From Escherichia coli (lineage in GTDB: Bacteria > Pseudomonadota > Gammaproteobacteria > Enterobacterales > Enterobacteriaceae), in NCBI RefSeq assembly GCF_009931435.1, contig NZ_CP043414.1: a stretch of DNA of 64,000 nt; one strand, 5' to 3'. The notes under the pieces were generated by a model that had not been told where the DNA came from, ran no database searches, and saw only the letters and a program-made list of their open reading frames with translations. Shown here piece after piece: positions 6,862-46,236 of the stretch (position 1 is the stretch's first letter; each line of letters opens with the position of its first letter). The position numbers and the translations under genes are program-made.

Positions 6862-8379
6862 ATGTCTGAACGAGAAACACGGGGAGCCAATGAGGCTATT
6901 GATTTTAACGATGAACTGAGAAATCGCCGCGAAAAACTGGCGGCACTACGTCAGCAAGGTGTGGCGTTTCCCAATGATTTTCGCCGCGACCATACCTCTG
7001 ACCAGTTGCACGAAGAGTTTGATGCGAAGGATAACCAGGAACTGGAATCCTTAAACATTGAAGTCTCGGTTGCTGGCCGAATGATGACCCGTCGTATCAT
7101 GGGGAAAGCCTCCTTTGTAACGTTGCAGGATGTCGGTGGCCGTATTCAACTGTACGTTGCACGAGATAGCCTGCCAGAAGGTGTTTATAACGATCAGTTT
7201 AAAAAATGGGACCTCGGCGACATTATCGGTGCCCGCGGTACGCTGTTTAAGACGCAAACTGGTGAGCTTTCCATTCACTGTACTGAGTTACGCCTGCTGA
7301 CTAAGGCACTGCGTCCATTGCCGGATAAATTCCATGGCTTACAGGATCAGGAAGTCCGTTATCGTCAACGTTATCTGGACCTCATCGCTAACGATAAATC
7401 CCGTCAAACGTTTGTTGTCCGTTCAAAAATTCTGGCCGCTATCCGTCAGTTCATGGTCGCTCGCGGTTTTATGGAAGTAGAAACCCCAATGATGCAGGTA
7501 ATTCCAGGTGGGGCATCTGCTCGCCCGTTTATTACCCATCATAATGCTCTGGATTTGGATATGTACCTGCGTATTGCGCCGGAGCTATATCTGAAACGTC
7601 TGGTTGTAGGTGGTTTTGAACGGGTATTCGAAATCAACCGTAACTTCCGTAATGAAGGTATTTCTGTTCGTCATAATCCTGAGTTCACGATGATGGAACT
7701 CTACATGGCGTATGCGGATTACCACGATTTGATTGAACTGACGGAATCACTGTTCCGCACTCTGGCACAAGAGGTACTGGGTACCACTAAAGTCACTTAT
7801 GGCGAGCATGTGTTTGATTTCGGCAAACCGTTTGAAAAACTCACCATGCGCGAAGCAATCAAAAAATATCGTCCAGAAACCAATATGGCGGACCTGGATA
7901 ATTTTGATGCTGCTAAAGCATTAGCTGAATCTATCGGAATTACGGTAGAGAAAAGCTGGGGGCTGGGACGCATTGTCACGGAGATCTTTGATGAAGTGGC
8001 AGAAGCACATCTGATTCAGCCAACCTTTATCACGGAATATCCGGCAGAAGTGTCACCGCTGGCGCGCCGTAATGATGTTAACCCGGAAATCACCGACCGT
8101 TTTGAATTCTTCATCGGTGGTCGTGAAATCGGTAATGGTTTTAGCGAATTAAACGACGCAGAAGATCAGGCGGAACGTTTCCAGGAACAGGTTAACGCTA
8201 AAGCTGCAGGTGACGACGAAGCCATGTTCTATGACGAAGATTACGTGACTGCGCTGGAATATGGTCTGCCGCCAACCGCGGGTCTGGGTATTGGTATCGA
8301 CCGAATGATTATGCTGTTTACTAACAGTCATACTATTCGCGACGTTATTCTCTTCCCGGCGATGCGTCCACAGAAATAA
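6862..8379 (+). CDS. lysU: Lysyl-tRNA synthetase, inducible isozyme
   Basis: 505 aa from the ATG at 6862 ([31 protein letters not shown]...); class II aaRS; the ORF-track start at 6835 is an upstream extension. Confidence 0.95.
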
Positions 8380-8390
8380 ATTTCATTTTA

Positions 8391-8425
8391 ACGAACGAAG
8401 CAGTCAGACGACTGCTTCGTTCGTC
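8391..8425. terminator. Hairpin between convergent lysU and ghoT, possibly bidirectional
   Basis: Inverted repeat aacgaacgaagcagtc / gactgcttcgttcgt with 4-nt loop; AT-rich tract on the ghoT-sense side. Confidence 0.5.
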
Positions 8426-8497
8426 GTTCCACAAATCCAGTTTCGAGGAGAGACGCTTCGTTTCAAGATAACCAGCGGGTCCACTCAACTACAGCTC

Positions 8498-8671
8498 CTA
8501 AAAGAGAGAAAAAAGTAATGCCACAGGCAGGCTCATTGGCCAGGTTATTCCGACCAGAAATGCACTAAGTAAACGAATATGTGTTTTCTCATGTGAGATA
8601 AACCAGATAATGACAAAGGATATGTTCACACCAATCACATAAAAAATTAATATTTTAGAGAATAGTGCCAT
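8498..8671 (-). CDS. ghoT: GhoT membrane-lytic toxin of the type V GhoT/GhoS toxin-antitoxin pair (57 aa; below the ORF-track length cutoff)
   Basis: Minus-strand translation reads MALFSKILIFYVIGVNISFVIIWFISHEKTHIRLLSAFLVGITWPMSLPVALLFSLF*, matching GhoT/YjdO; lies directly downstream of ghoS. Confidence 0.85.
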   Translation of the reverse strand: MALFSKILIFYVIGVNISFVIIWFISHEKTHIRLLSAFLVGITWPMSLPVALLFSLF

Positions 8672-8698
8672 TTTTTATGTTCTTCTTATCCTTCCTGA

Positions 8699-8995
8699 CT
8701 ACTTGTAAAACTGACGGAAATAGTCATCAACTGTCATAATGTTGAGGTCAAAATCAATATCCGGTAAGTCTAAGCATTTGAGCCTGATTAAATCTTCGAT
8801 TTCACTTGCGGCTAACGATGTCGTTATTGCGAAGGAATTTTCATTCAATTGTCGTGGTATCCCATATTCATCAGCCACGATAGAGGAGAAATTCATATCA
8901 TACATCAATGATCTTAACCTTAAGAACACTGAGGAATAAGATGATGGATAATCAAAAGAAACAACATAAGTATTGAACTTGTTTTTACCTTCCAT
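8699..8995 (-). CDS. ghoS: GhoS antitoxin (sequence-specific endoribonuclease) of the type V TA pair
   Basis: 98 aa from the ATG at 8995 (MEGKNKFNTYVVSFDYPSSY...) matching YjdK/GhoS; the ORF-track start at 9037 is an extension. Confidence 0.85.
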   Translation of the reverse strand: MEGKNKFNTYVVSFDYPSSYSSVFLRLRSLMYDMNFSSIVADEYGIPRQLNENSFAITTSLAASEIEDLIRLKCLDLPDIDFDLNIMTVDDYFRQFYK

Positions 8996-9223
8996 AATAT
9001 GACTCCTATCAATATTAAACGCTCTGGGGACGCACAACTTATTAACCCCGATCGATGATTCTCATATAGGAGATATTCTTTTTTTTTTGCTCAGTAAAGG
9101 GGATGACTTGGGACAAGAAAACGCTCTCTCTGACCATTCTTTGTGCATCCCCCTACCCTTCAGATTCTCTCCTGCATCACACCGCGGAGAGCATGAAAAA
9201 TATCGTGACTCTGTACTCTCCCA

Positions 9224-9496
9224 TCAACTGCGAATATCATCATACTCCCGCGTTTTATCAAATTCGTGTTTCGCAAATGGACATAATGGGATAATTTTTC
9301 GTTTTTCCCGACGCATTTTTTCCACGACTTTCGCAACCAGCTGTTTACCAATCCCTTGCCCTTTCAGGCTTTCATCGACATCGGTATGTTCGATAATCGC
9401 TAAATTCTCTCCGGTCGGCACAAAGACAATTTCAGCGATTTGCTTGCCCTGTTCGTCATTAATGTAAAATTTATTGTGGCCTTCGTGTATTTCCAT
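9224..9496 (-). CDS. yjdJ: Small GNAT-family acetyltransferase
   Basis: 90-aa ORF matching YjdJ; position between ghoS and yjdI. Confidence 0.8.
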
Positions 9497-16021: not shown

Positions 16022-16672
16022 ATGACCCGCACACTCAAGCCGTTAATTCTTAACACCGGCGCACTGGCGCTAACGTTAATCCTGATTTATACCGGCATTT
16101 CGGCCAATGACAAACTCACCTGGCTGATGGAAGTGACACCGGTGATTATTGTCGTGCCGCTACTGCTTGCCACCGCCAGACGTTACCCGTTAACGCCGCT
16201 GCTCTATACGCTCATTTTCTTTCATGCCATCATCCTGATGGTCGGCGGGCAATACACCTACGCGAAAGTCCCCGTTGGTTTTGAGGTGCAGGAATGGCTG
16301 GGGTTGAGCCGTAATCCGTATGACAAGCTGGGGCATTTTTTCCAGGGGCTGGTGCCTGCACTGGTGGCGCGAGAAATTCTCGTTCGCGGGATGTACGTGC
16401 ACGGACGTAAAATGGTGGCGTTTCTGGTCTGCTGCGTGGCGCTGGCGATAAGCGCGATGTATGAATTAATCGAGTGGTGGGCAGCGCTGGCAATGGGTCA
16501 GGGAGCGGATGATTTTCTCGGCACCCAGGGCGACCAGTGGGACACGCAATCCGATATGTTCTGCGCGCTGCTTGGCGCATTAACGACGGTGATATTCCTC
16601 GCTCGCTTTCATTGCCGCCAGCTACGGCGCTATGGCTTAATCACCAGAGCGCCGGAAGCGATTACCTCTTAA
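16022..16672 (+). CDS. yjdF: Inner-membrane protein YjdF; the 3' end may be altered at a deletion junction
   Basis: 216-aa membrane ORF matching YjdF over most of its length; its stop shares nucleotides with the melA stop on the opposite strand. Confidence 0.8.
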   Translation: MTRTLKPLILNTGALALTLILIYTGISANDKLTWLMEVTPVIIVVPLLLATARRYPLTPLLYTLIFFHAIILMVGGQYTYAKVPVGFEVQEWLGLSRNPYDKLGHFFQGLVPALVAREILVRGMYVHGRKMVAFLVCCVALAISAMYELIEWWAALAMGQGADDFLGTQGDQWDTQSDMFCALLGALTTVIFLARFHCRQLRRYGLITRAPEAITS

Positions 16673-26661: not shown

Positions 26662-27753
26662 ATGCGTTTTCTGCGCCGACCAATATCGCTGCGCCAACGG
26701 CTGATATTGACCATCGGGGCCATTTTGTTGGTGTTTGAGCTGATCAGCGTCTTCTGGCTATGGCATGAAAGTACCGAGCAGATTCAGCTGTTTGAGCAGG
26801 CGCTACGCGACAATCGTAACAACGATCGCCACATCATGCGTGAGATCCGCGAGGCGGTCGCCAGCCTGATTGTCCCTGGCGTCTTTATGGTCAGCCTGAC
26901 GCTATTTATCTGCTATCAGGCGGTACGCCGCATCACCCGCCCGCTGGCGGAGCTGCAAAAAGAGCTGGAAGCGCGCACCGCCGACAACTTAACGCCCATT
27001 GCCATTCACAGCGCCACCCTCGAAATCGAAGCGGTGGTTTCAGCGTTAAACGATCTGGTCAGTCGCCTGACCAACACGCTGGATAACGAAAGGTTGTTTA
27101 CCGCTGACGTCGCGCACGAACTGCGAACGCCACTGGCGGGGGTGCGTTTGCATCTGGAACTGCTGGCGAAAACGCATCACATTGATGTAGCACCGTTAGT
27201 GGCACGACTTGATCAGATGATGGAGAGTGTCTCCCAGCTACTGCAACTGGCGCGTGCCGGACAGTCATTTTCTTCCGGTAATTATCAACATGTAAAACTG
27301 CTGGAAGATGTCATTCTCCCCTCGTATGACGAACTCAGTACCATGCTCGACCAGCGCCAGCAAACCCTGCTATTACCAGAGAGCGCCGCCGACATCATCG
27401 TTCAGGGTGATGCAACCCTGCTGCGGATGTTATTGCGAAACCTGGTAGAAAATGCCCATCGTTACAGCCCGCAAGGCAGCAACATTATGATTAAGCTGCA
27501 AGAAGATGGCGGAGCGGTCATGGCCGTTGAAGATGAAGGACCGGGTATTGATGAGAGTAAATGCGGGGAGTTGAGTAAAGCGTTTGTACGTATGGACAGC
27601 CGTTATGGCGGGATTGGTCTGGGGTTAAGTATTGTCAGCCGCATTACACAGTTGCATCACGGGCAGTTTTTCCTGCAAAACCGGCAAGAGACTTCTGGCA
27701 CACGGGCCTGGATACGGCTGAAAAAAGATCAGTACGTGGCAAACCAGATATAA
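26662..27753 (+). CDS. basS: Sensor histidine kinase BasS/PmrB
   Basis: 363 aa from the ATG at 26662 (MRFLRRPISLRQRLILTIGAILLV...); the ORF track begins 9 nt upstream at a TTG. Confidence 0.9.
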   Translation: MRFLRRPISLRQRLILTIGAILLVFELISVFWLWHESTEQIQLFEQALRDNRNNDRHIMREIREAVASLIVPGVFMVSLTLFICYQAVRRITRPLAELQKELEARTADNLTPIAIHSATLEIEAVVSALNDLVSRLTNTLDNERLFTADVAHELRTPLAGVRLHLELLAKTHHIDVAPLVARLDQMMESVSQLLQLARAGQSFSSGNYQHVKLLEDVILPSYDELSTMLDQRQQTLLLPESAADIIVQGDATLLRMLLRNLVENAHRYSPQGSNIMIKLQEDGGAVMAVEDEGPGIDESKCGELSKAFVRMDSRYGGIGLGLSIVSRITQLHHGQFFLQNRQETSGTRAWIRLKKDQYVANQI

Positions 27754-27818
27754 AGAAAGCTGCTGACCACCAGCACGCTGAACACGGTAGTTAAACTTTC
27801 ATAAACACGGTTTTTCAT
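27729..27818 (-). CDS. pmrR: PmrR small membrane protein (29 aa), antisense to and overlapping the 3' end of basS
   Basis: Minus-strand translation MKNRVYESLTTVFSVLVVSSFLYIWFATY* matches PmrR as I recall it; below the ORF-track cutoff. Confidence 0.75.
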   Translation of the reverse strand: MKNRVYESLTTVFSVLVVSSFLYIWFATY

Positions 27819-27929
27819 TGCACTCTCCTCCGTTAACCTGGAGGAGAGTATGCGCGTCAGAGATTAAGTGAACCTTAAGAGTTCAATTGGCCTGATAAGA
27901 CAGCGTCACATCAGGCCATCCGTTTCAGC

Positions 27930-33559: not shown

Positions 33560-33715
33560 GCACATGATCGGTAGGCCGGATAAGGCGCTCGCGCCGCATC
33601 CGGCTACGGTGCCGACTGCCTGATGCGACGCTCGCGCGTCTTATCAGGCCTACAAATTCTCGCACCATCCGGCAACGGTGCCTAATGCGACGCTTACCGA
33701 GTCTTATCAGCCCCC
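33560..33715. repeat. BIME/REP cluster of several palindromic units
   Basis: Repeated gcctgatgcgacgc...gtcttatcaggcctac and ggtaggccggataaggcg...ccgcatccggc motifs typical of enterobacterial REP elements. Confidence 0.85.
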
Positions 33716-33775
33716 GCTCATCTGTATAATTTTCGAACTACACTTAACTGGCTTCTCTTAACTGAGGTCACCATC

Positions 33776-34219
33776 ATGCCGTTAAGTCCCTACCTCTCTT
33801 TTGCTGGTAACTGTTCCGATGCGATTGCCTATTATCAACGCACGTTGGGCGCGGAACTGCTTTATAAAATCAGCTTCGGCGAAATGCCGAAATCAGCGCA
33901 GGACAGCGCCGAGAACTGCCCTTCCGGAATGCAATTTCCCGATACCGCCATCGCTCATGCCAACGTGCGCATTGCCGGAAGCGACATCATGATGAGCGAT
34001 GCCATACCGTCAGGAAAAGCCAGCTACTCCGGCTTTACGCTGGTACTCGATTCGCAACAGGTCGAAGAAGGAAAACGCTGGTTTGACAACCTTGCCGCTA
34101 ACGGAAAAATCGAAATGGCCTGGCAGGAAACTTTCTGGGCGCATGGCTTCGGCAAAGTCACCGATAAATTTGGCGTACCGTGGATGATTAATGTCGTCAA
34201 ACAACAACCAACGCACTAA
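33776..34219 (+). CDS. yjdN: VOC/glyoxalase-family protein YjdN (PhnB)
   Basis: 147-aa ORF matching YjdN/PhnB. Confidence 0.85.
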   Translation: MPLSPYLSFAGNCSDAIAYYQRTLGAELLYKISFGEMPKSAQDSAENCPSGMQFPDTAIAHANVRIAGSDIMMSDAIPSGKASYSGFTLVLDSQQVEEGKRWFDNLAANGKIEMAWQETFWAHGFGKVTDKFGVPWMINVVKQQPTH

Positions 34220-34245
34220 CCCGCCGGGAGGCCCGCCCTCCCGCA

Positions 34246-34296
34246 CTGTCATCGAATTCCCGTTAACTCTTCATCTGTTAGTCACTTTTAGTTAAC
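34246..34296 (+). promoter_or_regulatory. Putative Pho box / phnC promoter
   Basis: CTGTCAT at 34246 and CTGTTAG at 34275 with TTAAC-containing repeats 50-100 bp upstream of phnC; consistent with PhoB control of the phn operon, exact site boundaries uncertain. Confidence 0.5.
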
Positions 34297-34351
34297 AAAA
34301 TCGTCACGATAATCCGCCACGATGGAGCCACTTTTTTAGGGAGGCTGCATC

Positions 34352-35140
34352 ATGCAAACGATTATCCGCGTCGAACAACTGAGCAAAACCTTCAATCAGC
34401 ATCAGGCGCTGCACGCGGTTGATCTGAACATTCATCACGGTGAAATGGTGGCTCTGCTTGGGCCGTCGGGTTCCGGCAAATCCACCCTTTTACGTCACTT
34501 AAGCGGCCTGATTGTCGGCGATAAAAAGCCAGAATGCCGCGTCGAACTGCTGGGCCGCACCGTCCAGCAAAATGGCCGCCTGGCCCGCGATATCCGCAAA
34601 AGCCGCGCCAACACCGGCTACATCTTCCAACAATTCAACCTGGTGAATCGCCTGAGCGTACTGGAGAACGTGCTGATTGGCGCGCTCGGCAGCACGCCGT
34701 TCTGGCGTACCTGTTTTAGCTGGTTCACCCGCGAGCAGAAACAGCGTGCGTTACAGGCACTGACTCGCGTTGGGATGGTGCACTTTGCCCATCAGCGCGT
34801 TTCCACGCTCTCCGGCGGCCAGCAGCAGCGTGTGGCGATAGCCCGTGCGCTGATGCAGCAGGCGAAGGTGATTCTGGCCGATGAACCCATCGCCTCGCTG
34901 GACCCGGAATCGGCCCGCATCGTGATGGATACCCTGCGCGACATCAACCAGAACGACGGCATCACCGTGGTGGTGACGCTGCATCAGGTGGATTACGCCC
35001 TGCGCTACTGCGAACGCATCGTCGCCCTGCGCCAGGGGCACGTCTTCTACGACGGCAGCAGCCAACAGTTTGATAACGAACGTTTTGACCATCTCTACCG
35101 CAGCATTAACCGCGTCGAAGAGAACGCGAAAGCTGCCTGA
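34352..35140 (+). CDS. phnC: Phosphonate ABC transporter ATP-binding protein
   Basis: 262-aa ORF with Walker A (GPSGSGKST), ABC signature (LSGGQQQR) and Walker B. Confidence 0.95.
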
Positions 35141-35164
35141 CATCCCCATCATTGAGGAAAACGA

Positions 35165-36181
35165 ATGAACGCTAAGATAATTGCCTCGCTGGCCTTCACC
35201 AGCATGTTCAGCCTCAGCACCCTGTTCAGCCCGGCACACGCCGAAGAGCAGGAAAAGGCGCTGAATTTCGGCATTATTTCAACGGAATCACAGCAAAACC
35301 TGAAACCGCAATGGACGCCTTTCCTGCAAGATATGGAGAAGAAACTGGGCGTAAAGGTCAACGCCTTCTTTGCTCCGGACTACGCGGGCATTATCCAGGG
35401 GATGCGCTTCAATAAAGTGGATATCGCCTGGTACGGCAATCTGTCGGCGATGGAAGCGGTGGATCGCGCCAACGGTCAGGTCTTCGCCCAGACGGTCGCG
35501 GCGGATGGATCGCCGGGTTACTGGAGCGTGTTGATCGTCAACAAAGACAGTCCGATCAACAACCTGAACGATCTGCTGGCGAAGCGTAAAGATCTCACCT
35601 TTGGCAATGGCGATCCTAACTCCACCTCTGGCTTCCTCGTCCCCGGCTACTACGTCTTCGCCAAAAACAATATCTCCGCCAGCGACTTCAAGCGCACCGT
35701 CAACGCCGGGCATGAAACCAACGCGCTGGCCGTCGCCAACAAGCAGGTGGATGTGGCGACCAACAACACCGAGAACCTCGACAAGCTGAAAACCTCCGCA
35801 CCGGAGAAGCTCAAAGAACTGAAGGTGATCTGGAAATCGCCGCTGATCCCAGGCGATCCGATCGTCTGGCGCAAAAATCTTTCCGAAACCACCAAAGACA
35901 AGATCTACGACTTCTTTATGAACTACGGCAAAACGCCGGAAGAGAAAGCGGTGCTGGAGCGCCTGGGCTGGGCCCCGTTCCGCGCCTCCAGCGACCTGCA
36001 ACTGGTGCCAATTCGCCAGCTCGCGCTGTTTAAAGAGATGCAGGGCGTGAAAGGCAATAAGGGACTGAATGAGCAGGACAAGCTGGCAAAAACCACCGCC
36101 ATTCAGGCGCAACTGGATGATTTGGACCGCCTGAACAACGCGTTAAGCGCAATGAGTTCGGTGAGTAAAGCGGTGCAGTAA
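35165..36181 (+). CDS. phnD: Phosphonate ABC transporter periplasmic binding protein
   Basis: 338-aa ORF with N-terminal signal peptide; matches PhnD. Confidence 0.95.
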   Translation: MNAKIIASLAFTSMFSLSTLFSPAHAEEQEKALNFGIISTESQQNLKPQWTPFLQDMEKKLGVKVNAFFAPDYAGIIQGMRFNKVDIAWYGNLSAMEAVDRANGQVFAQTVAADGSPGYWSVLIVNKDSPINNLNDLLAKRKDLTFGNGDPNSTSGFLVPGYYVFAKNNISASDFKRTVNAGHETNALAVANKQVDVATNNTENLDKLKTSAPEKLKELKVIWKSPLIPGDPIVWRKNLSETTKDKIYDFFMNYGKTPEEKAVLERLGWAPFRASSDLQLVPIRQLALFKEMQGVKGNKGLNEQDKLAKTTAIQAQLDDLDRLNNALSAMSSVSKAVQ

Positions 36182-36187
36182 TGTGCT

Positions 36188-36295
36188 CGATCGGTCCCCT
36201 CTCCCTTGAGGGAGAGGGTTAGGGTGAGGGGGGAAATACGCACGCTGATGCCCTCACCCCGGCCCTCTCCTACAGGGAGAGGGAGAAAACATTAA
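36188..36295. repeat. GC-rich nested palindromic element between phnD and phnE (family not assigned)
   Basis: Three inverted-repeat pairs: cccctctccc/gggagaggg, agggtgagggg/ccctcacccc, ccctctcc/gggagaggg. Confidence 0.6.
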
Positions 36296-36307
36296 ACGGA
36301 GCCAAAC

Positions 36308-37087
36308 ATGCAAACCATCACCATCGCCCCACCCAAGCGCAGCTGGTTCTCGATCTTCAGCTGGGCCGTTGTTCTCGCCGTACTGGTCGTCTCGTGGCAG
36401 GGCGCGGAAATGGCCCCGCTCACGCTGATTAAAGACGGCGGCAACATGGCGACGTTCGCCGCCGACTTCTTCCCGCCCGATTTCAGCCAGTGGCAGGATT
36501 ACCTCACCGAAATGGCCGTCACGCTGCAAATCGCCGTCTGGGGCACTGCGCTGGCAGTCGTTCTCTCCATCCCCTTCGGCCTGATGAGCGCCGAAAACCT
36601 GGTGCCGTGGTGGGTTTACCAGCCCGTTCGCCGCCTGATGGACGCCTGCCGCGCCATTAACGAGATGGTCTTCGCCATGCTGTTCGTGGTCGCCGTCGGT
36701 CTCGGTCCGTTCGCTGGCGTACTGGCGCTGTTTATCCACACCACCGGCGTGCTCTCCAAACTGCTTTCCGAAGCGGTAGAAGCAATTGAACCCGGCCCGG
36801 TGGAAGGTATTCGCGCCACTGGTGCCAACAAGCTCGAAGAGATCCTCTATGGCGTGCTGCCGCAGGTGATGCCGCTGCTGATCTCCTACTCCCTCTATCG
36901 CTTCGAATCCAACGTCCGTTCGGCCACCGTTGTTGGCATGGTCGGCGCTGGCGGGATCGGCGTCACGCTGTGGGAAGCGATTCGCGGTTTCCAGTTCCAG
37001 CAAACCTGCGCCCTGATGGTGCTGATTATCGTCACGGTCAGCCTGCTGGATTTCCTCTCTCAACGGTTGCGTAAGCACTTTATCTGA
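36308..37087 (+). CDS. phnE: Phosphonate ABC transporter permease, intact reading frame
   Basis: Uninterrupted 259-aa polytopic membrane ORF matching PhnE. Confidence 0.9.
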
Positions 37088-37107
37088 TAAGCGAGGCATT
37101 GATAGCT

Positions 37108-37833
37108 ATGCACTTGTCTACACATCCGACCAGCTACCCAACACGCTATCAGGAGATAGCCGCAAAACTTGAGCAGGAGCTTCGTCAACACTACCGCTGC
37201 GGCGACTATCTTCCCGCCGAGCATCAACTGGCGGCACGCTTTGAGGTGAATCGCCACACCCTGCGCCGCGCCATCGACCAACTGGTGGAAAAAGGCTGGG
37301 TACAGCGCCGTCAGGGCGTCGGCGTGCTGGTGCTGATGCGCCCGTTCGATTACCCGCTCAACGCCCAGGCGCGTTTTAGCCAGAACCTGCTGGATCAGGG
37401 TAGCCATCCCACCAGCGAAAAACTGCTGTCGGTGCTGCGCCCGGCCTCCGGCCACGTCGCTGACGCGCTGGGGATAACCGAGGGCGAGAACGTTATCCAC
37501 CTGCGCACCCTGCGTCGGGTCAACGGCGTCGCACTCTGTTTAATCGACCACTACTTTGCGGACCTCACTCTCTGGCCGACGCTGCAACGCTTCGACAGCG
37601 GCTCGCTGCACGATTTTTTGCACGAGCAAACGGGAATTGCGCTGCGCCGCAGCCAGACGCGGATCAGCGCCCGCCGCGCCCAGGCCAAAGAGTGCCAGCG
37701 TCTTGAAATTCCGAATATGTCGCCGCTGCTGTGCGTGCGCACCCTTAACCACCGTGACGGTGAAAGCAGCCCGGCGGAGTACTCCGTCAGCCTGACGCGC
37801 GCCGACATGATTGAATTCACCATGGAGCACTGA
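37108..37833 (+). CDS. phnF: GntR-family repressor of the phn operon
   Basis: 241 aa from the ATG at 37108 (MHLSTHPTSYPTRYQEIAAK...); N-terminal GntR HTH. Confidence 0.9.
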   Translation: MHLSTHPTSYPTRYQEIAAKLEQELRQHYRCGDYLPAEHQLAARFEVNRHTLRRAIDQLVEKGWVQRRQGVGVLVLMRPFDYPLNAQARFSQNLLDQGSHPTSEKLLSVLRPASGHVADALGITEGENVIHLRTLRRVNGVALCLIDHYFADLTLWPTLQRFDSGSLHDFLHEQTGIALRRSQTRISARRAQAKECQRLEIPNMSPLLCVRTLNHRDGESSPAEYSVSLTRADMIEFTMEH

Positions 37834-38286
37834 ATGCACGCAGATACCGCGACCCGCCAGCACTGGATGTCCGTGCTGGCGCACAGCCAACCGGCTGAAC
37901 TGGCTAACCGCCTTAAAGCGCTAAACATCACCGCCGACTATGACATGATCCGCGCCGCCGAAACCGGCCTGGTACAGATTCAGGCGCGAATGGGTGGCAC
38001 CGGCGAACGCTTTTTTGCTGGCGACGCTACGCTCACCCGCGCCGCTGTACGCCTTACTGACGGCACGCTCGGCTACAGCTGGGTGCTGGGGCGCGACAAA
38101 CAGCACGCCGAACGCTGCGCGCTGATTGACGCGCTGATGCAGCAATCTCGCCACTTTCAAAACTTATCAGAAACCCTTATTGCCCCGCTGGACGCTGACC
38201 GTATGGCACGCATTGCCGCACGCCAGGCCGAAGTGAACGCCAGTCGGGTCGACTTCTTTACGATGGTTCGCGGAGACAACGCATGA
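37834..38286 (+). CDS. phnG: C-P lyase core complex subunit PhnG
   Basis: 150-aa ORF starting immediately after the phnF stop (tgaATG). Confidence 0.9.
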
Positions 38287-38867
38287 CCCTGGAAACCGCT
38301 TTTATGCTTCCCGTGCAGGATGCCCAGCACAGTTTTCGTCGCCTGTTAAAGGCCATGAGCGAGCCGGGCGTGATTGTCGCCCTGCATCAACTCAAACGCG
38401 GCTGGCAGCCGCTGAATATCGCCACCACCAGCGTGCTGCTGACGCTGGCCGATAACGACACGCCGGTGTGGCTTTCTGCGCCATTAAGTAACGATATCGT
38501 CAGCCAGAGCCTGCGTTTTCATACCAACGCGCCGCTGGTCAATCAGCCGGAACAGGCGACCTTCGCAGTGACGGATGAGGCGATTGCCAGCGAGCAGCTC
38601 AACGCCCTTTCCATCGGCACCGCCGTTGCGCCGGAAGCCGGTGCGACGTTGATTTTACAGGTCACCAGCCTGAGCGGCGGACGCATGCTGCGCCTCACCG
38701 GCGCGGGTATTGCCGAAGAACGGATGATCGCCCCGCAACTGCCGGAGTGCATTCTGCACGAACTCACCGAGCGCCCGCACCCGTTCCCGCTCGGCATCGA
38801 CCTGATCCTGACCTGCGGCGAGCGCCTGCTGGCTATCCCGCGAACCACTCATGTGGAGGTGTGCTGA
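38283..38867 (+). CDS. phnH: C-P lyase core complex subunit PhnH
   Basis: 194-aa ORF with 4-nt overlap to phnG. Confidence 0.9.
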
Positions 38868-39931
38868 TGTACGTTGCCGTGAAAGGGGGCGAAAAGGCGA
38901 TCGACGCCGCCCACGCCCTGCAAGAGAGCCGACGCCGGGGCGATACTGATTTGCCTGAACTGAGCGTCGCCCAGATTGAACAGCAGCTTAATCTCGCGGT
39001 GGATCGCGTGATGACCGAAGGCGGCATTGCCGACCGTGAACTGGCGGCACTAGCGCTGAAACAGGCCAGCGGCGATAACGTTGAAGCGATTTTCCTGTTG
39101 CGCGCCTACCGCACGACGCTGGCAAAGCTGGCGGTGAGCGAGCCGCTCGACACCACCGAGATGCGGCTCGAACGCCGTATTTCGGCGGTTTATAAAGACA
39201 TTCCCGGCGGCCAGTTGCTTGGCCCGACCTACGACTACACCCATCGCCTGCTCGATTTCACCCTGCTGGCGAATGGCGAAGCGCCGACGCTGACCACCGC
39301 CGACAGCGAGCAAGCCCCATCGCCGCACGTTTTCAGCCTGCTGGCGCGTCAGGGGCTGGCGAAGTTTGAAGAGGATAGCGGCGCACAGCCGGACGACATC
39401 ACCCGCACGCCGCCGGTTTACCCCTGCTCACGTTCTTCCCGTTTGCAGCAGCTCATGCGCGGAGACGAAGGCTATTTGCTGGCGCTGGCCTACTCCACCC
39501 AGCGTGGTTACGGACGCAATCACCCGTTCGCAGGCGAAATCCGCAGTGGCTATATCGACGTGTCTATTGTGCCGGAAGAGCTGGGATTTGCGGTGAACAT
39601 CGGCGAACTGCTGATGACCGAGTGTGAAATGGTCAACGGTTTTATCGACCCGCCGGATGAGCCGCCGCACTTCACGCGCGGCTACGGGCTGGTGTTCGGC
39701 ATGAGCGAGCGCAAAGCGATGGCAATGGCGCTGGTTGACCGCGCTCTACAAGCCCCGGAGTACGGCGAGCACGCGACAGGCCCGGCGCAGGATGAAGAGT
39801 TCGTGCTGGCGCATGCCGACAACGTCGAAGCCGCAGGCTTTGTCTCGCACCTCAAACTCCCGCACTACGTCGATTTCCAGGCCGAACTGGAGCTACTCAA
39901 ACGTCTGCAACAGGAGCAGAACCATGGCTAA
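38867..39931 (+). CDS. phnI: C-P lyase subunit PhnI (ribose-1-methylphosphonate 5-triphosphate synthase component)
   Basis: 354 aa from the ATG at 38867 ([16 protein letters not shown]...), overlapping the phnH stop; the ORF-track start at 38747 is an extension. Confidence 0.9.
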   Translation: MYVAVKGGEKAIDAAHALQESRRRGDTDLPELSVAQIEQQLNLAVDRVMTEGGIADRELAALALKQASGDNVEAIFLLRAYRTTLAKLAVSEPLDTTEMRLERRISAVYKDIPGGQLLGPTYDYTHRLLDFTLLANGEAPTLTTADSEQAPSPHVFSLLARQGLAKFEEDSGAQPDDITRTPPVYPCSRSSRLQQLMRGDEGYLLALAYSTQRGYGRNHPFAGEIRSGYIDVSIVPEELGFAVNIGELLMTECEMVNGFIDPPDEPPHFTRGYGLVFGMSERKAMAMALVDRALQAPEYGEHATGPAQDEEFVLAHADNVEAAGFVSHLKLPHYVDFQAELELLKRLQQEQNHG

Positions 39932-40769
39932 TCTGAGCGGCTACAACTTTGCCTACCTCGACGAGCAGACCAAACGTATGATCCGCCGCGCCATCTTAAA
40001 AGCGGTGGCGATCCCCGGTTATCAGGTGCCGTTTGGCGGGCGCGAGATGCCGATGCCATACGGCTGGGGAACTGGTGGTATCCAGCTTACCGCCAGCGTG
40101 ATTGGCGAAAGCGACGTGTTGAAGGTGATTGACCAGGGCGCGGATGACACCACCAACGCCGTATCAATTCGCAACTTTTTCAAGCGCGTGACCGGGGTAA
40201 ACACCACTGAACGTACGGATGATGCGACGCTTATCCAGACGCGCCACCGCATCCCCGAAACGCCGCTGACCGAAGATCAGATCATTATTTTCCAGGTGCC
40301 GATCCCCGAACCGCTGCGCTTTATCGAGCCGCGCGAAACGGAGACCCGCACTATGCACGCGCTGGAGGAGTACGGCGTGATGCAGGTGAAACTGTATGAA
40401 GATATCGCCCGCTTCGGTCATATCGCCACCACCTACGCCTATCCGGTGAAGGTGAACGGACGCTACGTAATGGACCCATCGCCGATCCCGAAATTTGATA
40501 ACCCGAAAATGGACATGATGCCCGCCCTGCAACTGTTTGGCGCGGGGCGCGAGAAGCGTATTTATGCGGTGCCGCCGTTTACCCGCGTGGAAAGCCTCGA
40601 TTTCGACGATCATCCGTTCACCGTTCAGCAGTGGGATGAACCCTGCGCCATCTGCGGATCGACCCACAGCTATCTCGATGAAGTGGTGCTGGATGACGCC
40701 GGAAACCGCATGTTTGTCTGTTCCGATACCGATTATTGCCGCCAACAGAGCGAGGCGAAAAGCCAATGA
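39924..40769 (+). CDS. phnJ: C-P lyase PhnJ (radical-SAM-dependent C-P bond cleavage enzyme)
   Basis: 281 aa from the ATG at 39924 (MANLSGYNFAYLDEQTKRMIRR...); C-terminal Cys cluster CxxC...C...C. Confidence 0.9.
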   Translation: MANLSGYNFAYLDEQTKRMIRRAILKAVAIPGYQVPFGGREMPMPYGWGTGGIQLTASVIGESDVLKVIDQGADDTTNAVSIRNFFKRVTGVNTTERTDDATLIQTRHRIPETPLTEDQIIIFQVPIPEPLRFIEPRETETRTMHALEEYGVMQVKLYEDIARFGHIATTYAYPVKVNGRYVMDPSPIPKFDNPKMDMMPALQLFGAGREKRIYAVPPFTRVESLDFDDHPFTVQQWDEPCAICGSTHSYLDEVVLDDAGNRMFVCSDTDYCRQQSEAKSQ

Positions 40770-41524
40770 ATCAACCGTTACTTTCGGTCAATAACCTGAC
40801 CCACCTCTACGCACCGGGCAAAGGCTTCAGCGACGTTTCTTTTGATTTATGGCCGGGGGAAGTGCTGGGCATCGTCGGGGAATCCGGTTCCGGGAAGACC
40901 ACGCTGCTGAAATCAATCTCCGCGCGCCTGACGCCGCAGCAGGGGGAGATTCGCTATGAAAACCGTTCCCTCTATGGCATGAGCGAAGCCGACCGCCGCC
41001 GTTTACTGCGCACCGAATGGGGCGTGGTACATCAGCATCCGCTCGACGGCCTGCGTCGCCAGGTCTCGGCAGGCGGCAATATCGGCGAACGGCTGATGGC
41101 GACCGGGGCGCGTCATTACGGCGATATTCGCGCCACCGCGCAGAAGTGGCTGGAAGAGGTGGAGATTCCCGCCAACCGGATCGACGACCTGCCGACCACT
41201 TTTTCCGGCGGTATGCAGCAGCGTTTGCAGATTGCCCGCAACCTGGTGACGCATCCGAAGCTGGTGTTTATGGATGAACCGACCGGCGGGCTGGATGTAT
41301 CAGTGCAAGCGCGCCTGCTCGATCTGCTGCGCGGTCTGGTGGTGGAGCTGAACCTGGCGGTGGTGATTGTCACCCACGATCTGGGCGTCGCCCGCCTGCT
41401 GGCGGACCGTTTGCTGGTGATGAAGCAAGGGCAAGTGGTGGAGAGTGGGTTAACCGACCGCGTGCTCGACGACCCGCATCACCCGTATACCCAGCTGCTG
41501 GTGTCATCGGTTTTGCAGAATTGA
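40766..41524 (+). CDS. phnK: C-P lyase-associated ABC-type ATPase PhnK
   Basis: 252 aa from the ATG at 40766 (MNQPLLSVNNL...); Walker A GESGSGKTT. Confidence 0.9.
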   Translation: MNQPLLSVNNLTHLYAPGKGFSDVSFDLWPGEVLGIVGESGSGKTTLLKSISARLTPQQGEIRYENRSLYGMSEADRRRLLRTEWGVVHQHPLDGLRRQVSAGGNIGERLMATGARHYGDIRATAQKWLEEVEIPANRIDDLPTTFSGGMQQRLQIARNLVTHPKLVFMDEPTGGLDVSVQARLLDLLRGLVVELNLAVVIVTHDLGVARLLADRLLVMKQGQVVESGLTDRVLDDPHHPYTQLLVSSVLQN

Positions 41525-41535
41525 GCCTTGCTTGT

Positions 41536-41690
41536 GTCGGGTGGCGCTGCGCTTACCCGACCTACGGTACATGTAGGCCGGATAAGGCGTAGCCGCCATC
41601 CGGCTTATCAGGCCTACAAAACCATCGTAATACATTGATATTGATTCATTTGTAGGCCGGATAAGGCGCAGCCGCCATCCGGCAAAAACA
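41536..41690. repeat. BIME/REP cluster inside the phn operon, between phnK and phnL
   Basis: Tandem/inverted copies of gtaggccggataaggcg...ccgccatccggc and ttatcaggcctac REP motifs. Confidence 0.85.
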
Positions 41691-41703
41691 CGAAGAGGCC
41701 AAA

Positions 41704-42384
41704 ATGATCCGCGTCGAAAACGTCAGTAAAACCTTCATCCTGCACCAACAAAACGGCGTGCGCCTGCCCGTCTTACAACGCGCCTCGCTCACCGTCAACG
41801 CGGGCGAATGCGTGGTGCTCCACGGCCATTCCGGCAGCGGCAAATCAACCCTGCTGCGCTCGCTGTACGCTAACTATCTGCCCGACGAAGGGCAAATTCA
41901 GATCAAACATGGTGACGAGTGGGTAGACCTGGTCACCGCGCCAGCGCGCAAAGTGGTGGAAATCCGCAAAACCACCGTCGGCTGGGTGAGCCAGTTTCTG
42001 CGGGTCATCCCGCGTATTTCGGCGCTGGAAGTGGTAATGCAGCCGCTGCTCGATACCGGCGTTCCGCGTGAAGCCTGCGCCGCTAAAGCCGCCCGTCTGC
42101 TCACCCGCCTGAACGTGCCGGAACGTCTGTGGCACCTGGCGCCATCGACCTTCTCCGGCGGCGAACAGCAGCGCGTCAACATCGCGCGCGGCTTTATCGT
42201 CGATTACCCCATTCTGCTGCTCGACGAACCTACTGCCTCGCTGGACGCCAAAAACAGCGCCGCGGTGGTGGAACTGATCCGCGAAGCTAAAACCCGCGGC
42301 GCAGCCATCGTCGGCATCTTCCACGACGAAGCCGTACGCAATGACGTCGCCGACCGCCTCCACCCAATGGGAGCCTCTGCATGA
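41704..42384 (+). CDS. phnL: C-P lyase-associated ABC-type ATPase PhnL
   Basis: 226-aa ORF with Walker [10 protein letters not shown]. Confidence 0.9.
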
Positions 42385-43517
42385 TTATCAATAACGTCAA
42401 ACTGGTGCTGGAAAACGAAGTGGTACACGGTTCGCTGGAGGTGCAGGACGGCGAAATTCGCGCCTTTGCCGAAAGCCAGAGCCGCCTGCCAGAAGCGATG
42501 GACGGCGAAGGTGGCTGGCTGCTGCCGGGGCTGATTGAGCTGCATACCGACAACCTCGATAAATTCTTCACTCCGCGCCCGAAAGTGGACTGGCCTGCCC
42601 ACTCAGCGATGAGCAGCCACGACGCGCTGATGGTGGCGAGCGGCATCACCACGGTGCTGGATGCCGTGGCGATTGGCGACGTGCGCGACGGCGGCGATCG
42701 GCTGGAGAATCTGGAGAAGATGATCAACGCCATCGAAGAGACGCAGAAACGCGGGGTCAACCGCGCCGAGCACCGTCTGCACCTGCGCTGTGAACTGCCG
42801 CATCACACTACGCTGCCGCTGTTTGAAAAACTGGTGCAGCGCGAGCCGGTCACGCTGGTGTCGCTGATGGACCACTCGCCGGGCCAGCGCCAGTTCGCCA
42901 ATCGCGAGAAGTATCGCGAATATTACCAGGGCAAATACTCGCTCACCGATGCGCAGATGCAGCAGTACGAAGAGGAACAACTGGCGCTTGCCGCACGCTG
43001 GTCGCAGCCGAATCGCGAAACCATCGCCGCAATATGCCGCGCGCGACAAATTGCCCTCGCCAGCCACGATGATGCTACGCACGAGCACGTTGCCGAATCC
43101 CACCAGCTTGGCAGCGTAATCGCCGAATTTCCCACCACGTTCGAAGCGGCGGAAGCTTCGCGCAAGCATGGCATGAATGTATTGATGGGCGCGCCGAATA
43201 TTGTGCGCGGCGGTTCGCACTCCGGCAACGTGGCGGCAAGCGAACTGGCACAGCTTGGCCTGCTGGATATCCTCTCTTCCGACTACTACCCCGCCAGCCT
43301 GCTCGATGCGGCATTTCGCGTCGCCGATGACGAGAGCAACCGCTTTACGCTGCCGCAGGCGGTGAAGCTGGTGACTAAAAATCCGGCGCAGGCGCTTAAT
43401 CTTCAGGATCGCGGGGTGATTGGCGAGGGCAAACGCGCCGACCTGGTGCTGGCGCATCGCAAGGGCAACCACATTCATATCGATCACGTCTGGCGTCAGG
43501 GTAAAAGGGTGTTCTGA
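42381..43517 (+). CDS. phnM: PhnM, amidohydrolase-family ribosyl-methylphosphonate triphosphate diphosphatase
   Basis: 378-aa ORF with 4-nt overlap to phnL; matches PhnM. Confidence 0.9.
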
Positions 43518-44074
43518 TGACGGGAAAACTGATTTGGTTAATGGGGGCCTCTGGCTCCGGAAAAGACAGTCTGTTGACGGAACTCCGCCAGCGGGAACAA
43601 ACTCAGCTACTGGTAGCGCATCGCTACATCACGCGCGCCGCCAGCGCCGGAAGTGAAAACCATATCGCCCTGAGCGAGCAGGAGTTTTTTACCCGCGCGG
43701 GGCAGAACCTTCTGGCCTTAAGCTGGCACGCCAACGGCCTGTATTATGGCATCGGCGTCGAGATTGACCTCTGGCTACACGCCGGATTCGACGTGGTGGT
43801 CAACGGCTCACGCGCGCATTTGCCGCAGGCGCGGGCGCGCTATCAATCGGCTCTGCTGCCTATCTGTTTACAGGTGTCACCGGAGATCCTGCGCCAGCGT
43901 CTGGAAAACCGTGGTCGTGAAAATGCCAGTGAAATTAACGCCCGGCTGGCGCGCGCTGCCCGCTATACTCCTCAGGATTGTCTTACGCTCAATAATGACG
44001 GCAGCCTGCGCCAGTCGGTCGACAAGCTGCTGACGCTGATTCATCAGAAGGAGAAACACCATGCCTGCTTGTGA
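43517..44074 (+). CDS. phnN: Ribose 1,5-bisphosphate phosphokinase PhnN
   Basis: 185-aa ORF with P-loop GASGSGKDS; overlaps the phnM stop. Confidence 0.9.
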
Positions 44075-44495
44075 GCTTCGTCCGGCCACGCAGTACGACA
44101 CCGACGCGGTTTACGCGCTGATTTGTGAGCTAAAACAGGCGGAGTTTGACCACCATGCGTTTCGCGTGGGCTTTAACGCCAACCTGCGCGACCCGAACAT
44201 GCGCTACCATCTGGCGCTGCTGGAAGGCGAAGTTGTCGGCATGATCGGCCTGCATTTGCAGTTTCATCTGCATCATGTCAACTGGATCGGCGAAATTCAG
44301 GAACTGGTGGTGATGCCGCAGGCGCGCGGTCTGAACGTCGGCAGTAAATTACTGGCATGGGCCGAAGAAGAAGCCCGCCAGGCCGGGGCCGAAATGACCG
44401 AGCTTTCCACCAACGTCAAGCGCCACGACGCGCACCGTTTCTATCTGCGCGAAGGCTACGAGCAGAGCCACTTCCGCTTCACCAAGGCGCTGTAA
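44061..44495 (+). CDS. phnO: Aminoalkylphosphonate N-acetyltransferase PhnO (GNAT)
   Basis: 144-aa ORF overlapping phnN by 14 nt. Confidence 0.9.
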
Positions 44496-44496
44496 C

Positions 44497-45255
44497 ATGA
44501 GCCTGACCCTCACACTTACTGGCACTGGCGGCGCACAGGGTGTTCCCGCATGGGGCTGTGAGTGCGCGGCCTGCGCCAGAGCGCGGCGCTCACCGCAGTA
44601 TCGCCGCCAGCCATGCAGCGGCGTCGTGAAGTTTAACGACGCGATCACCCTGATCGACGCCGGACTGCACGATCTCGCCGATCGCTGGTCGCCCGGATCG
44701 TTCCAGCAGTTTTTGCTGACGCACTACCATATGGATCACGTGCAGGGGCTGTTTCCGCTGCGCTGGGGCGTGGGCGATTCGATCCCGGTCTACGGCCCGC
44801 CGGATGAACAGGGCTGCGACGATCTGTTTAAACATCCGGGCCTGCTTGATTTCAGCCACACGGTGGAGCCATTTGTGATGTTTGATTTGCAGGGATTACA
44901 GGTCACGCCGCTGCCGCTCAACCATTCGAAACTCACTTTCGGCTATCTACTGGAAACGGCACATAGCCGGGTGGCGTGGCTGTCTGACACCGCAGGCCTG
45001 CCGGAAAAAACGGTGAAATTTTTATGCAATAATCAGCCACAGGTAATGGTGATTGATTGCTGCCACCCACCGCGCGCGAATTCGCCACGCAATCACTGTG
45101 ATTTAAACACCGTGCTGGCGCTGAATGAAGTTATCCGCTCGCCGTGCGTGGTTCTGACACATATCAGCCATCAGTTTGATGCGTGGCTGATGGAGAACAT
45201 ACTGCCGTCAGGGTTTGAGGCGGGGTTTGATGGGATGGAGATTGGGGTGGAGTGA
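44497..45255 (+). CDS. phnP: Metallo-beta-lactamase-fold cyclic phosphodiesterase PhnP
   Basis: 252-aa ORF with HxHxDH motif ([10 protein letters not shown]). Confidence 0.9.
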
Positions 45256-45289
45256 TGGGTGAGGGGCGATGCCTGCTCTAAACTCAACA

Positions 45290-45598
45290 TCACCGCCCAT
45301 ACTCATCTTCCATTCTCCGCTCTTCATCTTCTAGCTGCCGACGCTCCTGATCCAGCTGGCGCTGGCGATCGTCCAGCTGCCTGCGGCGATCTTCATATTG
45401 TCTGCGCCGATCGTCGTTCACTTCACGCTGCCAGCCGTCGTCGCGCCAATCTTCATAGTCTCGCCCACGGTCAGGGTTATAAGCATCGTTAATCGCCTGC
45501 TGAATATTGCCAATGGTGTCGTCGATAATATCGGCCTGGGCCGGAACGGTGGACAGCGTGAGCAGGGTGAATAAAAGAAATAGCGGAAAACGTTTCAT
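45290..45598 (-). CDS. yjdP: Small secreted low-complexity protein YjdP (Arg/Asp/Glu/Gln-rich)
   Basis: 102-aa ORF with signal peptide (MKRFPLFLLFTLLTLSTVPAQA) and charged repeats (RRRQYEDRRRQLDDRQRQLDQERRQLEDEE). Confidence 0.8.
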   Translation of the reverse strand: MKRFPLFLLFTLLTLSTVPAQADIIDDTIGNIQQAINDAYNPDRGRDYEDWRDDGWQREVNDDRRRQYEDRRRQLDDRQRQLDQERRQLEDEERRMEDEYGR

Positions 45599-45666
45599 TA
45601 GCCAACCTCAAAAAGAAACTCTATCCACATTAGTCATTACTCATCCATGCAAGTAGTGGATGAATC

Positions 45667-45984
45667 TCAATTTTTCCGCTGCTCTATTGCCGTAATCGCC
45701 TCCACGCGTTGTTGATGACGACCGCCTTCGTACTGCGCGCCCAGCCACGCATCCACAATCATTTTTGCCAGTTCGAGGCCAACCACTCGTGAACCAAAAG
45801 CCAGTGCAACTTCACTGGCGTAATGCGGATAATCAGTGCGCTCTGACGACCTGGTTTCTTTATCAATCCCCTCACTCATTGACCATGAATAAAAGGCTGG
45901 CACAGCAACGCAGAATCCTGCGGTGCCAGCGACATGACCGCCCATTGCTCCGGTACGTTTTTTAATAAGAAACACCGGTTGCAT
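45667..45984 (-). pseudogene. rpiB: rpiB-like remnant: the C-terminal ~45 residues and a short N-proximal block match ribose-5-phosphate isomerase B, but the central part is missing and the N-terminus is diverged
   Basis: Translation ...ETRSSERTDYPHYASEVALAFGSRVVGLELAKMIVDAWLGAQYEGGRHQQRVEAITAIEQRKN matches RpiB segments as I recall them, but the ORF is 105 aa against ~149 aa for RpiB, with no match to the central catalytic region. Confidence 0.55.
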
Positions 45985-46236
45985 TGATTAATTGTGCTCA
46001 GTATTTGCCGAAGTACAATATATATAATAAATATATAAAACACCTCATATTATTTACAGAGATAATAAATTCGCGTACTTTTCCCTCTTCAGCACAAATG
46101 CCTAATAAAATGGCTCGTTCCGCTCACACTTCCACTTATTAAAATCGCAATTTCCCAATTATGATAACGCCAGCTTTAAATGACGTATTTTGCATGGATT
46201 ACATATTTACGACACAAATGATAAATGGAGATTTAT

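Follow-up and report, generated by a model that had tools for sequence, protein, structure and literature searches.

Layout and identity of the ghoS-ghoT locus

The window analysed here is a 64-kb stretch of Escherichia coli DNA, and the interval between yjdJ and lysU is almost certainly the chromosomal ghoS-ghoT operon of E. coli, the founding type V toxin-antitoxin system (Table 1). The ghoS gene lies directly 5' of ghoT, both are on the minus strand, and a 27-nt spacer separates them, which is the layout of a type V operon. The gene order dtpC-lysU-ghoT-ghoS-yjdJ-yjdI is the same in the window and in K-12 MG1655, where yjdI, yjdJ, ghoS (b4128) and ghoT (b4559) are followed by the convergent lysU (b4129), dtpC, and cadA. 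Among the listed RefSeq matches, ghoT carries the label 'type V toxin-antitoxin system toxin GhoT', ghoS is labelled 'endoribonuclease antitoxin GhoS', and a gene for a lysine--tRNA ligase is the neighbour. A 901-bp query covering the locus was found in 5,341 of 5,426 complete E. coli genomes. An earlier sequence-only reading of this DNA had proposed a type V pair convergent with lysU; RefSeq annotates the pair in the same way, and the lysyl-tRNA synthetase gene on the plus strand does end at 8379, facing ghoT.

Table 1. Coordinates of the genes and other features at the ghoST locus, as positions in the window.
Feature	Position	Strand	Description	Basis
lysU-type lysyl-tRNA synthetase gene	6862..8379	+	convergent neighbour of ghoT	RefSeq lysS/lysU; collinear with K-12 b4129
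Hairpin	8391..8424	both	perfect 15-bp stem, 4-nt loop; between convergent lysU and ghoT	
ghoT CDS	8498..8671	-	57 codons + TAG; small two-helix membrane toxin	PF10753, K-12 identity, RefSeq annotation
ghoS-ghoT spacer	8672..8698	-	27 nt; mRNA UCAGGAAGGAUAAGAAGAACAUAAAAA; SD-like GGAAGGA, then A-rich leader	
ghoS CDS	8699..8995	-	98 codons + TAG; endoribonuclease antitoxin	PF11080, K-12 identity, PDB 2LLZ
ghoS Shine-Dalgarno AGGAG	9003..9007	-	7 nt before ATG at 8995	
yjdJ-ghoS intergenic region	8996..9223	-	presumed ghoST promoter and 5' leader	gene positions

Direct translation of 8498..8671 on the minus strand gives 57 codons and a stop, running from ATG to TAG with no internal stop or frameshift, and the product is MALFSKILIFYVIGVNISFVIIWFISHEKTHIRLLSAFLVGITWPMSLPVALLFSLF. 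This is the uninterrupted 174-nt frame for a 57-aa peptide that the sequence-only reading had described as missing from the list of open reading frames. It is indeed unlisted because its 57 aa fall under the default 60-aa floor of the mechanical ORF listing; at a 30-aa floor it appears. The product matches Pfam PF10753 (Toxin_GhoT_OrtT) with 90.4 bits (E=8.9e-26; gathering cut-off 22.1) over profile positions 1-55 of 55. All 57 of its 57 residues are identical to those of K-12 GhoT (b4559, YP_588474.1), so the claimed match to GhoT is a complete one, and the peptide is also identical to RefSeq WP_001173343.1. Judged by its sequence, the 57-aa peptide is a K-12-type GhoT, which would be a membrane toxin according to the work on K-12. 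The sole way to overturn this identification is a frameshift arising from a sequencing error, and none was seen.

The GRAVY of GhoT is 1.50, and in its hydropathy profile (11-residue Kyte-Doolittle window) a hydrophobic stretch lies on either side of the polar loop SHEKTHIR, one over approximately residues 4-26 and the other over 34-57; the two-helix hydrophobic profile attributed to the peptide is therefore borne out. Two transmembrane domains are predicted for both GhoT and its relative OrtT, and the substitution F38R abolishes GhoT toxicity (PMC4344625); residue 38 of the window's peptide is Phe. A search of the PDB with GhoT returned no solved relative.

The upstream 98-aa product matches Pfam PF11080 (endoribonuclease GhoS) with 138.8 bits (E=6.1e-41; cut-off 21), and it is identical to K-12 GhoS (b4128, NP_418552.1) at 98 of 98 residues. 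It also aligns over residues 1-98 with PDB 2LLZ chain A ('uncharacterized protein YjdK') with E=7.8e-62, and the assignment of this gene to GhoS in the sequence-only reading is in full agreement with both matches. A longer, 112-aa form of ghoS starting from TTG at 9037 was dropped: the ATG at 8995 is where the Pfam match starts and where the annotations of RefSeq and K-12 place the start codon, and the AGGAG motif is also better placed for it. A scan of GhoT and GhoS against NCBIfam matched neither protein to a family; we take this to mean a gap in that library and not counter-evidence, because the Pfam and RefSeq names are unambiguous. The two genes share a reading frame and are separated by the ghoS TAG and an additional in-frame TAA, to which no meaning is attached.

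A scan of the whole window against Rfam gave no match in or near 8380..9223, and thus no known sRNA or antisense RNA at the locus. A promoter scan found four sites where 3.1 are expected from shuffles and is uninformative; the sole promoter-like site on the ghoST strand (9261..9233) is no more than what shuffles give.

Strain comparison and selection

The window aligns collinearly with K-12 4361579..4295000 in reverse complement, with an identity of about 97.5%, and the ghoST region falls in the part collinear with K-12 4361579..4344932. For the comparison of alleles, nine strains were used: the window, K-12, the best match, and six others sampled at regular intervals along the similarity ranking. 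In these strains ghoT has six variable sites with seven synonymous and no nonsynonymous variants; in ghoS the corresponding counts of variants are seven and one. Only 23% of the possible single-base changes in ghoT are synonymous, and the chance that seven out of seven would be so without selection is about 3e-5, by simple arithmetic that ignores transition bias. WP_001173343.1 is the GhoT accession in all seven of the annotated non-K-12 strains examined. From these alignments it is concluded that the GhoT peptide is under strict purifying selection.

Between the window and K-12, the coding differences are at 8558 and 8531 in ghoT and at 8918 and 8837 in ghoS, and all four are synonymous; the spacer has one substitution, at 8698. 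In the yjdJ-ghoS spacer, an A10 homopolymer (9079..9088 on the ghoST strand; T10 on the plus strand) is 10 nt long in the window and six other strains, and 8 nt long in K-12 and one other. Such variation could alter the spacing within the ghoST promoter or leader.

At positions 8300-9200, an identity of 99% or more to the window is reached by only 18 of the 5,341 matching genomes, and 5,309 are at 95-99%. The window therefore belongs to a thinly sampled lineage of E. coli. The nearest relative over this interval is strain N96, which was obtained from a Tibetan pig.

Translation signals

In front of ghoS, the AGGAG motif forms an anti-Shine-Dalgarno duplex of -6.8 kcal/mol at canonical spacing. 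An anti-Shine-Dalgarno duplex scan found no such site at normal spacing before the ghoT start at 8671, and in this respect the search for a ribosome-binding site that the sequence-only reading had recommended came out negative. The best match, CAGGAAGGA, has -6.5 kcal/mol and ends 17 nt before the AUG; the leader is A-rich, with ACAUAAAAA as the last 9 nt before the start. K-12 ghoT likewise has no canonically spaced Shine-Dalgarno sequence, because its spacer differs from that of the window only at 8698. A weak initiation signal of this kind would fit a toxin that is made at a low level.

GCU sites and A/U-rich regions

The ghoS gene contains three GCU sites (nt 121, 213, and 221) and ghoT contains none, counts that equal the published ones (PMC4803016; PMC4344625). 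The absence of GCU from ghoT extends to all nine strains examined. Of the mononucleotide shuffles of ghoT, 9.6% were free of GCU, as were 2% of random recodings of GhoT in which synonymous codons were drawn according to codon usage in the window; the avoidance of GCU is thus only mildly unlikely by chance, and is suggestive but not striking. This asymmetry has a published role, in which the ghoST mRNA loses its ghoS part, with three GCU, to the GCU-specific RNase MqsR but keeps its ghoT part, with none, so that the toxin message becomes enriched (PMC4803016; PMC4344625; PMC4905990). The DNA of the present lineage differs here from that of K-12 by about 2.5%, and both the GCU asymmetry and the exact GhoT peptide are preserved in it.

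GhoS cuts ghoT mRNA in A/U-rich regions, and its recognition sequence has been called 'rather undefined' (PMC3997798); it also reduces about 20 other transcripts (PMC3997798; PMC4010927). The ghoT gene has 65% A+U (35% G+C), including a 19-nt run of A and U only at nt 15-33 (window 8639..8657), which is a plausible candidate for a GhoS target region. With regard to the cleavage motif that the sequence-only reading had suggested looking for in the ghoT mRNA, the base composition and the 19-nt run are compatible with the description of GhoS cleavage and are not diagnostic of it. The window's ghoT mRNA differs from that of K-12 by two synonymous bases.

The hairpin between lysU and ghoT

The hairpin at 8391..8424 lies 12 nt past the lysU stop and 73 nt past the ghoT stop, and it dominates the predicted intergenic folds on both strands (z = -4.0 and -4.9). 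No U-tract follows the stem on either side, the flanking sequences being CGUUCCAC on the lysU side and UAAAAUGAAAU on the ghoT side, and no terminator was called at the hairpin because of this lack of a T-run. A consensus terminator scan of 8200..9300 found none; therefore the sequence does not justify calling the hairpin an intrinsic terminator.

One base pair of the stem, 8392:8423, varies among the strains. The window and its nearest relative have C:G here, five strains have T:G, and K-12 and L009 have T:A; the stem is kept across the strains despite this change. The commonest allele, T:G, gives a U-G wobble in the lysU RNA and an A-C mismatch in the ghoST RNA. This wobble pattern, which concerns one pair only, is a weak hint that the hairpin is selected on the lysU strand.

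The simplest reading of the hairpin is that of a stem-loop at the 3' end of the lysU mRNA, and it may also stop or stabilise ghoST transcripts that arrive from the opposite side. The sequence-only reading had gone further and had described a hairpin shared between the gene pair and the 3' end of lysU. The hairpin itself is there; that it is shared is a possibility and not a result, because it is closer to lysU, has no U-tract, and lies in a region where the terminator scan is blank. A true bidirectional terminator common to lysU and ghoST would agree with its being the sole strong structure between two convergent genes, with a perfect 15-bp stem that folds on both strands and is maintained despite the change at 8392:8423. 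However, neither strand supplies a U-tract, the scan gave no terminator, and the commonest allele, T:G, pairs only in the lysU RNA, though this last point rests on one pair and is weak. Overall, a bidirectional terminator appears possible but doubtful, and a stem-loop at the 3' end of the lysU mRNA is the simpler reading.

One may also speculate that lysU transcription might read through the U-tract-less hairpin and run antisense over ghoT, and that the A8/A10 run might tune ghoST expression between lineages; we consider this very improbable. If it were true, lysU read-through would add a layer of antisense or transcriptional interference, resembling a type I system, and would tie expression of the toxin to the induction of lysU. 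The lysU gene is induced by heat, anaerobiosis, and low pH.

Proposed mechanism

The following scheme is drawn from published work on the identical K-12 proteins (PMC4344625, PMC3997798, PMC4803016, PMC12282077), as given in later papers that cite the original studies. The ghoS and ghoT genes would be co-transcribed, and GhoS, as a stable endoribonuclease with a ferredoxin fold, would cut the ghoT part of the transcript in its A/U-rich regions, such that little GhoT is made. Under stress, the GCU-specific RNase MqsR would be freed and would destroy the ghoS part, with the ghoT part being spared. GhoT would then be made and may insert into the inner membrane through its two helices, where it would dissipate the membrane potential and ATP and slow down growth. 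In K-12, the mqsRA genes are located far outside the span of this 64-kb window.

The cleavage of mRNA by GhoS is known from experiments with K-12 (PMC3997798, PMC4010927), and membrane damage, loss of ATP, and growth arrest have been published for the identical K-12 GhoT (cited in PMC4344625, PMC12282077). In a CRISPRi screen under gentamicin, knock-down of ghoS had a 9.8-fold fitness cost compared with 1.5-fold for ghoT, which the authors read as the effect of unrestrained toxin at native copy number (PMC12282077). This result is compatible with release of the toxin at native copy number. The physiological weight of the toxin-antitoxin behaviour of ghoST is debatable.

Comparison with known systems

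The closest known system is K-12 GhoT/GhoS (YjdO/YjdK; b4559/b4128), of which both proteins are 100% identical to those of the window. The two loci share gene order, orientation, the length of the 27-nt spacer, the neighbours (yjdJ upstream and lysU convergent), the GCU counts of three and zero, and the position of the hairpin. They differ by two synonymous changes per gene, one spacer base (8698), the hairpin pair (T:A in K-12 and C:G in the window), one base of the hairpin loop, and the length of the A-run upstream of ghoS, which is A8 in K-12 and A10 in the window. Viewed as sequence changes, these differences look neutral, and there are no variant features at the window's ghoST beyond neutral polymorphism.

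OrtT (YdcX) resembles GhoT in belonging to PF10753, in its length of 57 aa, in its two transmembrane helices, and in having Phe38 (PMC4344625). In contrast to GhoT, to which it is 63% identical, OrtT has no antitoxin gene beside its own, GhoS does not neutralise it, and its mRNA contains two GCU (PMC4344625). The type I membrane peptides such as Hok and TisB are, like GhoT, small and hydrophobic proteins of the inner membrane, and the block on their synthesis likewise acts on the mRNA (PMC3827094). However, the antitoxin of a type I system is an antisense RNA, whereas ghoST has a protein antitoxin, an endoribonuclease whose gene precedes that of the toxin on the same strand.

The finding of ghoT is already known in that an annotated and characterised gene pair has been correctly re-identified. 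Since ghoT is annotated in K-12 (b4559), has been characterised since 2012, and is present in RefSeq for thousands of genomes, the discovery value is little. The case has a practical side: a 60-aa floor for open reading frames hides functional small genes, and frames of less than 60 aa that lie beside known partner genes deserve inspection.

Alternative interpretations

No evidence against the identification of ghoST was found, and the alternatives were weighed against the same data. A 57-codon frame downstream of ghoS might be open by chance, as the intergenic DNA is AT-rich (35% G+C), the frame is short, and there is no canonically spaced Shine-Dalgarno sequence in front of it. Yet a chance frame would hardly match a Pfam family with E=8.9e-26 or be annotated as ghoT across RefSeq, and the protein is invariant while the DNA differs at six sites, with seven of seven variants synonymous. 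In addition, toxicity is abolished by F38R in GhoT and by a start-codon mutation in the homologue OrtT (PMC4344625). Because of the conservation pattern, the reading as a chance frame is refuted and retains practically no probability. Just as little can be said for an orphan toxin of the OrtT type, the paralogue YdcX, free of control by a neighbouring GhoS. PF10753 covers both GhoT and OrtT, and OrtT is also 57 aa long with 63% identity to GhoT (PMC4344625); however, the window's peptide is identical to K-12 GhoT at 100% and not at 63%, its gene follows ghoS after 27 nt at the same locus as K-12 ghoST, and it has no GCU, as opposed to the two of the ortT mRNA (PMC4344625). Sequence identity and synteny therefore refute this reading as well, to which we assign a negligible probability.

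A further alternative accepts both genes and concerns what they do. Several of the roles in stress and persistence that have been ascribed to the upstream MqsRA system are contested, which counts in favour of a reading in which the stress-activated toxin-antitoxin behaviour is largely an effect of overexpression, GhoT at its native level is a small membrane protein that does no harm, and GhoS is an RNase with other targets, namely about 20 purine and pyrimidine transcripts. The poor ribosome-binding site of ghoT fits very low native translation; the published phenotypes rest mainly on plasmid overproduction (PMC4344625, PMC4010927), and GhoS does lower about 20 other transcripts (PMC3997798, PMC4010927). 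This reading is set against the gentamicin screen, in which silencing of ghoS was costly (9.8-fold) and silencing of ghoT was much less so (1.5-fold) at native copy number (PMC12282077), as well as against the strict purifying selection on the peptide and the avoidance of GCU in its gene. On balance, it appears rather unlikely that the behaviour is largely an overexpression effect, and a functional type V toxin-antitoxin operon is the preferred reading.

Other features of the window

Two segments of K-12 are absent from the window outside the ghoST locus. The melB gene is missing: about 20 bp (16649..16668) separate the stops of yjdF and melA, and the corresponding segment of K-12 is 1.66 kb long and carries melB. 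The strain would accordingly be predicted to lack the MelB melibiose carrier. The yjdF-melA junction without melB is contiguous in 1,264 of 5,426 complete E. coli genomes. The D-allose operon alsRBACEK is also missing, together with the sequence up to rpiB, at 45804..46013; the corresponding segment is about 6.8 kb in K-12 (4306822..4313662). The als-less junction is contiguous in 1,569 of the 5,426 genomes, and is annotated as a gene for an isomerase of the RpiB/LacA/LacB family. The absences of melB and als are common lineage polymorphisms.

No tRNA genes are present in the 64-kb window. Matches to Rfam at the gathering level were obtained for the sRNA STnc630 at 27722-27887 on the minus strand, for the repeat-derived nucleoid-associated RNA naRNA4 at 33574-33650 on the plus strand, and for the selenocysteine insertion element SECIS_2 at 53880-53934 on the plus strand, which lies within fdhF by collinearity with K-12. 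The phn (phosphonate) operon at 33679-45804 has 93-95.6% identity to K-12, compared with about 97.5% in the flanking DNA, and may be a product of recombination or a divergent allele. An alignment gap occurs near phnE (36181-36297), where K-12 carries its known pseudogene.
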